The notes under the pieces are model-generated. The model made no database searches. It saw only the letters and a list, made by a program, of their open reading frames with translations, and was not told where the DNA came from. From an uncultured Elusimicrobia bacterium (GTDB lineage: Bacteria > Elusimicrobiota > Elusimicrobia > 2-01-FULL-59-12), in contig OY969767.1 of NCBI GenBank assembly GCA_963702895.1, forward strand, positions 2,592,001 through 2,656,000: a stretch of DNA of 64,000 nt, in the 5' to 3' direction. A program made the position numbers and the translations under genes. Positions 14,078 through 42,487 of this stretch are shown here, one piece after another. Positions within the stretch are counted from its first letter, which is position 1; each line of letters opens with the position of its first letter.

Positions 14078-16860
<2,783 letters not shown>

Positions 16861-39896: not shown

Positions 39897-40475
39897 CTAT
39901 GGAAAGACTGGGCTGGCCTGGGGTTCCTGCTGGAGGTATGTATGGACGAGAAGCGAGAAGGAGGGAGCGATCTCCGCCATGATGGTGATTTTCGTATACG
40001 CGACGATGTCGGCGTGGTTGATACGAACGATGGGGCACTCGCCATCTGACGTGGTGCGGTTAAAATCAAAGCCAATGGGATCAACCTCGCCAGAGCTCGG
40101 GCGCGCAAATTGAGCGTAGCCGTTCTTGAGAAGAACTTCCGAAAGCACCCGATCATGGATCATGGCCATGCCCATTTCATGATAAAGCGTTCGGCCGGTG
40201 TTGGCGAGGAGGGTGAGGTCTCCTACATCAAAGGCAGGGAAAATATAGCGCGTGACGAGAGACCTATAAGAAGGCGGGAGCTTTCGCTGGAGCGCGTCTT
40301 CCAAGGACTCAATCCAATTGATGCGATCAAAACGCTGAATGGTCCAGTCATAGTAGAGCCCGAACTCCGCGCCACCCCCGCGCAAGGGATGAGGAACATC
40401 TTCTTCCCGAATACGACGACGCGGCGTATTATTGACTTTTCTGACGAAGGCATCGACGACATCATCCACTTCCAT
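39897..40475 (-). CDS. SMI1/KNR4 (SUKH)-like protein
   Basis: LEDALQRKLPPSYRSL, DPIGFD, CPIVRINH, IAPSF. Confidence 0.7.
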   Translation of the reverse strand: MEVDDVVDAFVRKVNNTPRRRIREEDVPHPLRGGGAEFGLYYDWTIQRFDRINWIESLEDALQRKLPPSYRSLVTRYIFPAFDVGDLTLLANTGRTLYHEMGMAMIHDRVLSEVLLKNGYAQFARPSSGEVDPIGFDFNRTTSDGECPIVRINHADIVAYTKITIMAEIAPSFSLLVHTYLQQEPQASPVFP

Positions 40476-40610
40476 GCCTTATTTCCCCCTCCGCGCATTT
40501 GGCGACTCTGAAATTTTAGGGAAACTTGATGGAATCTTCTATAGAGCGGAAGATTCGAAATAGAAGGCCAAAAGACCCAGCCCTTCTCTAGGACTCGGCG
40601 ACCCTGCTGG

Positions 40611-41995
40611 GAGCTTTAGTCAAATGTGATGGAAATCGATCGGCGCCCCTTTGGTCGAAAGTCTCTTAGGCCGCTACCTCCAGCTTCTCTCGTTCGACGA
40701 ATAATCCCATCACCAATTCCGGCTTCTCAATCGGCTTCCAGAATTGCGCCAGGCGTTCAATGATTTTGTAGACGAACGCTACTCCCGTGCGAGATTTCTG
40801 AAACCGCCGCACAACGCGAGTTCGCAATCGGACCCCCGCGAAGACCGACTCGATCGGATTGCTCGTCTTTAAATGCACCCAGTGCTCCTTCGGAAAGTCG
40901 AAGTAGCGCAGCAAGGCGTCATGGTCCTTCCGGATACAAGCCGCCGCCTTCGGGTAGCGAATCTCCAGGTCCTCGGCTAACAAGGCCAGGTGATTCTCCG
41001 CGTCTTCTCGACGCTCCGCCTGATACGCTACGCGCAGACGGTTGAGCACCTCCTCTTGCTTGGCCTTCGGCACTTTATCCACGACGTTGCGCATCTTGTG
41101 CTTCCAGCACCGTTGATCTTTGGCGGTCGGATAGACCTCCGCCACCGCCTCCCAGAGCCCACCCATCCCATCGCCGATAACCAAGAGCGGAGCGGGCATT
41201 CCACGCTCCGCCACCCCTCGCCAGATTTCCTTCCAGGAATCCCGGCTCTCCCGGTAGCCTTCCATCAGAGCAATCAGCTCTTTCTTCCCATCGGCATTCA
41301 CGCCAACCAACACTAAAAGCGCCGTATTCTCTTTCTCCAGCCCGGCCTTCAAGTACACGCCGTCCGCCCAGACATAGGCGTAACGCGTTTCGGATAAGTC
41401 CCGGCGGCTGAAGGTGGCCAGGTCCGATTGAAACTTCGCCGATAAACGCAGGATCGTGCTGGCTGATAAGGTGGCTCCATCCCCGATCAGTGCTCGCATC
41501 GCCGGCTCAAAGTCCCGGCTCGAGAGCCCCTCCAGGTACAGCCGCCGGAATAACTCCTCGACACCCTCGGTTCGCCGCTGGTACGGACGCAAGATGCTCG
41601 ACTCAAACTCGCCCCCGTCGACTTGCGGCACCGAGAGCTTTAAACCTGCTCCCAAAACTGTCACCTTCCGCTCCCGGGTTCCGTTGCGATAGCCTTTCTC
41701 CAGGCTCTTCGCCCGCTCATAGCGCCGCCGCTCCAGATACATCGTCACTTCTTCCTCCAGGGCTTCCACCAGCATTTTGCGCGCTCCCTCTCGGGCCAGA
41801 TAATCCAGCATGCTCTCTTTGTGTTCGCAGCCTTTCACGTTTACAATGGTCTTCATAACGGCGTCTCCTTTTCGTTTATTGTCCGCTTGAACGGACAGGT
41901 TTGTTTGGTTCAACGAAAGGGTACGCCGTTATCTATTCCTAAGGCAAATCCTTCCTTGCCTCAGAACCTATTTCCAGCACTTTTGATGGTAACTC
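40611..41995 (-). mobile_element. IS256-family insertion sequence
   Basis: Imperfect terminal IRs (GAGCTTTAGTCAAATGTGATGGAAAT / GAGTTACCATCAAAAGTGCTGGAAAT) and a perfect 9-bp DR CCCTGCTGG at 40602-40610 and 41996-42004. Confidence 0.93.
40666..41856 (-). CDS. IS256-family (Mutator) DDE transposase
   Basis: GYRNG, YLEGLSSRD, WADG, IGDG, QRCWKH, TSNPIES. AAGGAG RBS. Confidence 0.96.
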   Translation of the reverse strand: MKTIVNVKGCEHKESMLDYLAREGARKMLVEALEEEVTMYLERRRYERAKSLEKGYRNGTRERKVTVLGAGLKLSVPQVDGGEFESSILRPYQRRTEGVEELFRRLYLEGLSSRDFEPAMRALIGDGATLSASTILRLSAKFQSDLATFSRRDLSETRYAYVWADGVYLKAGLEKENTALLVLVGVNADGKKELIALMEGYRESRDSWKEIWRGVAERGMPAPLLVIGDGMGGLWEAVAEVYPTAKDQRCWKHKMRNVVDKVPKAKQEEVLNRLRVAYQAERREDAENHLALLAEDLEIRYPKAAACIRKDHDALLRYFDFPKEHWVHLKTSNPIESVFAGVRLRTRVVRRFQKSRTGVAFVYKIIERLAQFWKPIEKPELVMGLFVEREKLEVAA

Positions 41996-42089: not shown

Positions 42090-42136
42090 GCCCTCGTCGT
42101 CTCGCGGTTAGGACGCCGCCCTCTCAAGGCAGAGAT
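42090..42136 (+). pseudogene. tRNA-Glu 5' fragment, copy 1 (no T arm)
   Basis: GCCCTCGTCGTCTCGCGGTTAGGACGCCGCCCTCTCAAGGCAGAGAT, nearly identical to the 5' part of the intact tRNA. Confidence 0.8.
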
Positions 42137-42173: not shown

Positions 42174-42268
42174 GCCCTCATCGTCTAGCGCCCGCCACTA
42201 CATCGGAGCGGGCGTCCGCCGAGGCTTAGTGGCGGACGGTTTAGGACGCTGCCCTCTCAAGGCAGAGA
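42174..42268 (+). pseudogene. tRNA-Glu 5' fragment, copy 2, with a 48-nt D-loop insertion
   Basis: GCCCTCATCGTCTAGCG [42191-42238] GTTTAGGACGCTGCCCTCTCAAGGCAGAGA. Confidence 0.8.
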
Positions 42269-42285
42269 ATGAGGATGCTGCGCGT

Positions 42286-42359
42286 GCCCTCATCGTCTAG
42301 CGGTTCAGGACGCTGCCCTCTCAAGGCAGAGATCACGGGTTCGAATCCCGTTGGGGGCA
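42286..42359 (+). tRNA. tRNA-Glu (anticodon CTC), CCA not encoded
   Basis: Acceptor GCCCTCA/TGGGGGC, anticodon arm CTGCC-CTCTCAA-GGCAG, T arm ACGGG-TTCGAAT-CCCGT. Confidence 0.95.
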
Positions 42360-42487
42360 CGCGCAGCACACCTCTTGAACGGGTTCGTCCGCCACACGTC
42401 CGGCGGGCGAGCGCCTGTCGTGTGGCGCTCTCCGCCACTCCATCTTCGGCGCGCCCGCCAGGGGCTTCAAGGATCAAGAGACGTGCT

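Follow-up and report, generated by a model that had tools for sequence, protein, structure and literature searches.

Hairpin doublets with a mirrored-target footprint, likely very small mobile elements, in broken tRNA copies of an Elusimicrobia lineage

How did a broken copy of a tRNA gene come to carry a pair of tiny hairpins in its D-loop, and do such hairpins move? The 64,000-nt stretch analysed here (the window) sits on a single-contig genome of 2.72 Mb (G000), and its tRNA-Glu(CTC) locus raises this question. A first-pass annotation of the locus, whose sequences and coordinates check out as written, had noted 48 extra nucleotides in one tRNA copy (copy 2), made of two hairpins in opposite orientations. 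Both points stand: excision of the 48 nt after TAGCG gives back the 5' half of tRNA-Glu(CTC), with GGTTT replacing GGTTC and without the tRNA 3' half, and the two hairpins are class II arms on the plus and minus strands (Table 1). The unit reported at 42388 is also real, with its outer bases unpaired and the arm ending at 42407; AGCGCCTGT, which had been taken for T-arm sequence, starts a second hairpin, and the third site is also a doublet. The degenerate units placed at 42431 and 42454 are present as a degenerate arm and a truncated partner. The doublets are a genuine family, 36-48 nt long and spread through the lineage, whose mirrored-target footprint is unusual. Their mobility is well supported, and they probably represent mobile elements of minimal size, lodged across the genome in defective extra copies of tRNA genes and in other repeats.

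Table 1. Features of the tRNA-Glu(CTC) locus (window positions)
Feature	Position	Strand	Basis
Copy 1, empty 5' half of tRNA-Glu(CTC), D-loop CG without insert	42090..42136	+	matching empty 5' halves in G004, G005
Copy 2, tRNA-Glu 5' half with D-loop interruption	42174..42268	+	sequence comparison with G004, G005
Copy 2, left target CG	42189..42190	+	
Copy 2, class II arm 1; stem of 6 bp, one pair mismatched; loop of 10 nt that opens with ACT and has C as its eighth base	42191..42212	+	
Copy 2, centre CG, reverse complement of the target; palindromic	42213..42214	.	
Copy 2, class II arm 2, orientation opposite to arm 1	42215..42236	-	
Copy 2, right target CG	42237..42238	+	
Intact tRNA-Glu(CTC), likely rescuing duplicate	42286..42360	+	
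T-arm fragment, last letters are target CG	42380..42387	+	
Third site, class I arm 1; 8-nt loop, outer bases unpaired	42388..42407	+	
Third site, centre CG	42408..42409	.	
Third site, class I arm 2 (AGCGCCTGT at its start; T-arm in the earlier reading)	42410..42429	-	
Further class II-like insertion, after C of right target: degenerate arm and start of truncated partner	42431..42459	+	

Within the window locus, Rfam recognised only tRNA above the gathering score, and no consensus promoter came out of a promoter scan. The best DNA fold of either window doublet is one long hairpin (z about -3); the D-loop doublet, as RNA, forms two hairpins. Sampled words of the genome were present at no more than 7% in any public sequencing run. 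Misassembly of the locus is argued against by the comparison of genomes, because three others carry doublets at the matching site. Further upstream, at 39897-40475, the window encodes a 192-aa protein with no Pfam match, homologues of which lie near tRNA-Glu(CTC) in G001 and G008.

Empty and differently filled orthologous sites were found among the relatives. At the orthologous tRNA-Glu, the downstream fragment is missing in G001 and G004, and the downstream site holds blunt class II doublets in G005 and G008. The orthologous T-loop site of G007 carries class I arms only two letters from those of the window, with CA as target and TG as centre, matching the T-loop of G007 itself; only 19 of 2,346 doublet pairs are as close as these. 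In G004 and G005, the order is an empty 5' half, a spacer ending in TTTGT, and an intact tRNA-Glu gene. Copy 2 occupies the position of that intact gene, with the upstream TTTGT and the GGTTT D-loop common to all. Because both its position and its GGTTT D-loop match the intact gene of the relatives, copy 2 is likely, as judged from sequence, the original tRNA-Glu gene, which would have been hit and then replaced by a downstream duplicate. The doublets explain clusters of dead tRNA halves, and here the original gene was apparently hit and then rescued by its duplicate.

The family extends well beyond this locus. The motif of the first-pass annotation occurs 53 times in the 2.72 Mb, compared with 1 and 0 times in two 5th-order Markov simulations, and 32 of the 33 database loci with it belong to Elusimicrobiota or Elusimicrobia. 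A survey of 61 genomes detected class I doublets in 9, and one of 151 genomes detected class II doublets in 9, both classes being almost confined to one family of genomes; they are absent in G004 (98% complete), G009 and G010, and class I doublets were not found in viral contigs. Genome-wide there are 298 perfect arms, 108 of them within 500 nt of a tRNA gene, a zone that makes up about 1.9% of the genome; 37 of the 48 tRNA genes have an arm nearby, and D- and T-loop fragments are enriched, as had been suggested. None of the 298 arms lies in an intact tRNA gene and copy 2 lacks a 3' half, on which grounds a tRNA intron was rejected. Long ORFs cover 81% of the genome and contain 20 of 102 doublets (genome rows only, without the chance-looking matches at 284605, 739932 and 1565145). 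Other landing sites are REP-like repeats, heptamer repeats and the doublets themselves. The genome has about 150 CGTC-type REPs (e.g. 15414-15530 and 149050), whose own loops vary as AC-N-N-C-N and some of which hold nested doublets three levels deep. It also contains heptamer tandem repeats, some with doublets, and, at 2455081-2455450, a tandem array in which a tRNA-Gln 3' fragment is repeated five times in 82-nt copies, all carrying the same doublet.

Each arm consists of two variable bases followed by CGCC or CGAC, a loop and the complement. The loops measure 8-9 nt in class I and 10-11 nt in class II, with a conserved A and C in each, and the view of a repeated non-coding micro-element with conserved stems and variable loops is supported. 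The proposal of a single 24-nt unit that duplicates CG is not: arms normally come as a head-to-head doublet, an arrangement seen in 95 pairs, whereas 5 pairs are reversed and 3 run in the same direction. Doublet copies with near-identical flanks were merged before counting. The three chance-looking matches named above and locus L023 were left out of the loop-diversity and polarity counts (both by class) and of the outer-base counts; L023 alone was left out of the mirror-rule, class-mixing, near-identical-pair and loop-position counts. No mixing of classes was seen in 141 independent doublets, genome and fetched loci pooled. Among 104 arms there are 55 distinct loops. In class I, loop positions 5, 6 and 8 are near-free; A is the most frequent base, C is seldom seen at positions 5 and 6 (4 and 9 of 138 arms), and position 2 varies between C and G. 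The outer bases come from a small set (TC stands in 32 of 110 class I arms), and three genomes share an odd arm of 9 nt. Class II pairs are heterotypic in polarity in 20 of 27 cases (p = 0.02), a bias that could result from selection against perfect palindromes. Solo arms are also found, in small number, indicating that arms can be separate modules. Modules reassort within REPs as well, all four allele combinations being present among 42 REP copies; the inner doublet shows almost no variation among 8 REP copies, and tandem amplification of doublets is visible.

The footprint itself runs from a target X of 0-3 nt through a first hairpin, the reverse complement of X and a second hairpin to X again. 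Of 66 doublets with a 1-2 nt centre, 54 have a centre that mirrors both flanks, 8 one that mirrors a single flank, and 4 one that mirrors neither. At the CG examples first reported, a mirror and a direct copy are inseparable because CG is palindromic; the rule therefore rests on CA, C, A and CC cases, and 19 of 21 non-palindromic centres are mirrors, with none a direct repeat. CG was right as the commonest target (35 of 54 mirrored cases) and too narrow as the only one, the others being CA, C, A, CC, CCG or none. The centre is as long as the duplication, whether 0, 1, 2 or 3 nt, and 31 of 41 class II doublets are blunt. With tRNAs as the empty reference, 29 events were mapped, tandem copies included and with one insert entered twice because it was scored from each of two adjacent genes: a duplication of 1-2 target bases accompanies 21, 4 are blunt, and in the other 4 the hairpins take the place of the anticodon arm. 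Among the matches listed, one REP family provides a case of 3 nt, and a nested case of 1 nt has its empty site. One outer-base pair may accompany up to four centres (AG/CC with CG, CA, A and CC), and this, together with the G007 site, contradicts the idea that the outer bases fix the centre. Hairpins also replace the anticodon arm in spare tRNA copies (G000 1701265, 2042473, 2184257 and 817213; L235 and L239-L242).

We propose the following mechanism, which we favour tentatively and at somewhat less than even confidence. The doublets would be non-autonomous elements that enter a cut in folded, repeat-like DNA, such as tRNA arms and REPs, probably through a trans-acting SLX1-like GIY-YIG nuclease, and their centre would be made by folding back. 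A staggered cut would leave 3' overhangs, and one arm would be joined to each 3' end. The arm would then fold back and be extended over the overhang, thus writing the mirror of the target; the two new tails would pair, and fill-in would complete the insertion. A tRNA gene hit in this way would survive only if duplicated, leaving dead half-copies behind. Folding back is supported by the tracking of centre length with duplication length, by the outer pair with several centres and by the CA/TG/CA site of G007. The modular nature of the arms is supported by the solo arms, the anticodon-arm swaps (4 of the 29 events) and the REP allele combinations. On the other side, fold-back explains blunt doublets poorly because they would have no tails to anneal. 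Some centres are inherited, since one lineage (G000 1963958, L017 and L036) keeps a fixed centre, AGGCCT, in three genomes, its outer ends pairing mutually and not with the centre. Near-identical doublet pairs, moreover, number 19 against 10.3 expected under the null (p = 0.03, among 2,346 pairs), and the excess lies among pairs that share a centre: 10 of the 19 do so, compared with 24% in the whole set of pairs, while the remaining 9, whose centres differ, are roughly as many as chance would give.

Which enzyme could make the cut? Reverse transcriptase, GIY-YIG, Y1 and tyrosine-recombinase matches all lie outside the window, in agreement with the earlier observation that no dedicated mobilising enzyme is visible there. 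Small GIY-YIG genes number 3-8 in each of 8 doublet-positive family genomes, while each of 3 negatives has one housekeeping-type gene, these being related genomes and not independent samples. One GIY-YIG clade is linked to tRNA genes (tRNA nearby in 61 of 81 loci and, in another count, in 17 of 22) and has UPF0213 and Slx1 as its closest solved structures. By association, this SLX1-like nuclease is the leading candidate. In other lineages its neighbours include hairpin doublets of different kinds, placed at D-arm and T-loop positions as in this genome (L133, L138, L169), CG-centred doublets of unrelated sequence (L142, L144), and short hairpins that replace the tRNA-Ala anticodon arm; indeed, anticodon-arm replacements repeatedly adjoin a tRNA-Ala-linked GIY-YIG gene. 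When the genes flanking doublets were clustered, the GIY-YIG clade appeared, among the matches listed, in at least 3 genomes, with syntenic genes and small toxin-antitoxin-like pairs. A tree of 26 small GIY-YIG genes separates the tRNA-linked clade from a REP-flanked, likely Ssn-type clade, which tracks doublets equally well within the family. At E <= 1e-16, no member of the tRNA-linked clade was detected in G005 or G007, both of them, like G000 and G001, rich in doublets, and only weaker GIY-YIG matches lie by doublets there; at the same threshold it is present in 19 genomes outside the family, nearly all without these loop types. A doublet lies within about 500 nt of 3 of the 8 small GIY-YIG matches and at 3-30 kb from the remaining 5. 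To our knowledge, a GIY-YIG domain cuts DNA, and we know of no case in which it joins DNA.

Other candidates fared less well. An IS256-family (Mutator-type) element lies just upstream of the locus, at window positions 40610-41995, with ends unrelated to the doublets. The genome contains 9 copies of it, which fall into two groups by identity to the window copy (98-100% and about 87%), and it was rejected as the mover given its own ends and the distance of its 8 other copies (4-31 kb) from the nearest doublet. Tyrosine recombinases gave four matches in the genome, and the flanks of the two that were viewed contain no arms. Two structures beside the tRNA-linked GIY-YIG clade may be recorded here: a 20-nt palindrome in a tRNA-Leu D-arm fragment (L157) and a 75-nt long-stem doublet in a tRNA-Pro fragment (L172).

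Taken at its fullest, the proposal is of a wholly new mobility mechanism, in which an SLX1-like nuclease of about 80 residues would cut cloverleaf or cruciform DNA, hairpin modules of about 20 nt would be grafted on the broken ends and the mirror would arise by fold-back, giving both the 36-48 nt elements and the tRNA arm swaps in many uncultured lineages. We regard this as less likely than not, though not by a wide margin. Because the footprint can be read, empty sites are known and the candidate enzyme is small, the question can be tested in vitro.

The strongest rival, somewhat unlikely in our estimate and yet nearly as good as staggered-cut fold-back, is that the doublet travels in one piece, as a dumbbell-shaped single-strand circle with the centre plus one X, and that an inherited centre picks the target by pairing, as the guides of IS200/IS605 and REP-TnpA do. 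It covers blunt and duplicated insertions alike, and it accounts for the fixed head-to-head order, for the fixed-centre lineage and for the centre-sharing excess of near-identical pairs. Guide-based choice of the cleavage site has been shown for IS608 and a TnpA-REP (PMC8266576). However, retargeting would demand paired changes, length included, in many arm lineages, and the enzyme is hard to place: the genome has no intact Y1 transposase, the RAYT or IS200-type HUH partner suggested by the first-pass annotation being reduced to one weak match in an 89-aa open frame. Y1 genes are present in the doublet-negative G004 and G010, and no doublet was found at the 20 fetched of 32 family Y1 loci. An HUH/RAYT partner is not supported, and Y1 genes do not track the doublets.

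Passive spread is improbable. Gene conversion among tRNA fragments and REPs would carry the doublets, and template-switch correction of quasi-palindromes would add the mirror later. The reassortment of REP modules, the near-constant inner doublet in 8 REP copies and the tandem amplification would fit; the insertions at many non-homologous sites would not, and a later correction would not set the centre to the length of the duplication. It is more improbable again that an error-prone polymerase, a reverse transcriptase that mutates adenines or something like it, writes the arms anew on broken ends, the doublets being repair scars and not copies. The near-free class I loop positions, the prevalence of A and the 55 distinct loops invite this reading, and the loop variation resembles the mutation spectrum of diversity-generating retroelements. 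We rate it low because the only three reverse transcriptase matches in the genome (230277, 463860 and 1962540), near-identical and typed by eye from motifs, look group II intron-like; a diversity-generating retroelement was rejected, with no reverse transcriptase of that type with a template repeat seen. The C/G variation at loop position 2 also speaks against it, and C at positions 5-6 could be shunned simply since it would pair with the stem. Random writing of arms is likewise weakened by the fixed-centre lineage, the small set of outer bases and the odd 9-nt arm common to three genomes. Finally, the model of the first-pass annotation, in which single 22-24 nt hairpins insert independently at CG with direct duplication, is barely credible, and the data already contradict it as a general rule: although CG is the most frequent target and some arms are solo, head-to-head pairs outnumber all others 95 to 8, classes do not mix and no informative centre is direct.

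Several known systems share part of this anatomy with the doublets. REP dimers and BIMEs with RAYT are described as GC-rich hairpins of 20-40 nt, often in fixed-orientation heterodimers and some nested in palindromes (PMC3733652, PMC8266576). The doublets are like these, including the GTAG and CGTC REPs, in being short GC-rich hairpins paired in fixed orientation and nested in other palindromes. Unlike GTAG REPs with RAYT, they have no GTAG at the hairpin foot, where the arm flanks vary, and no intact Y1 gene; unlike REPs, their spacer is the mirror of the target and they insert into CGTC-type REPs; and unlike CGTC REPs, they have no constant CGTC tag, CGTC arising only when a target CG meets an outer TC. 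IS200/IS605 elements and the palindromic miniature elements derived from them likewise have two hairpin ends and possible pairing between internal sequence and target (guide: PMC8266576). In contrast, the doublets have abutting hairpins and a variable target of 0-3 nt on both sides, with no TnpA found, whereas the miniature elements use a fixed tetra- or pentanucleotide target without duplication. The terminal inverted repeats of the doublets, which form one long DNA hairpin (z about -3), recall MITEs; yet their duplication of 0-3 nt is not fixed, and their ends are not common to the adjacent IS256-family element, the only DDE family compared. Ssn nucleases, as far as the accessible text describes them, are single-domain GIY-YIG genes tied to NTS/SRM hairpin repeats and cut near the hairpin (PMC11893778). 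The combination of a single-domain GIY-YIG protein with short hairpin repeats is the same here, and a likely Ssn-type clade, flanked by REP halves, is present in the genome; the tRNA-linked clade, however, is a separate branch, and the Ssn work, in that text, shows cutting near a hairpin without insertion or a mirrored target. Mitochondrial GC clusters and double-hairpin elements share with the doublets a size of about 40 nt, GC-richness, conserved stems, variable loops and shuffled units. In the accessible parts of these reports, GC42 clusters duplicate a fixed AG and the Allomyces double-hairpin elements are without duplications (PMC4478555, PMC2800124); unlike the doublets, these elements are organellar, with no mirrored centre described there. 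In the full-text literature searched, with most subscription papers and the Ssn supplements lying outside it, no description of the element or its footprint was found, and fold-back, if true, would be a form of DNA insertion absent from that literature. As a minor observation, G000 also carries ten genes for four-helix-bundle proteins (PF05635), at 497134, 730125 and 8 further positions.
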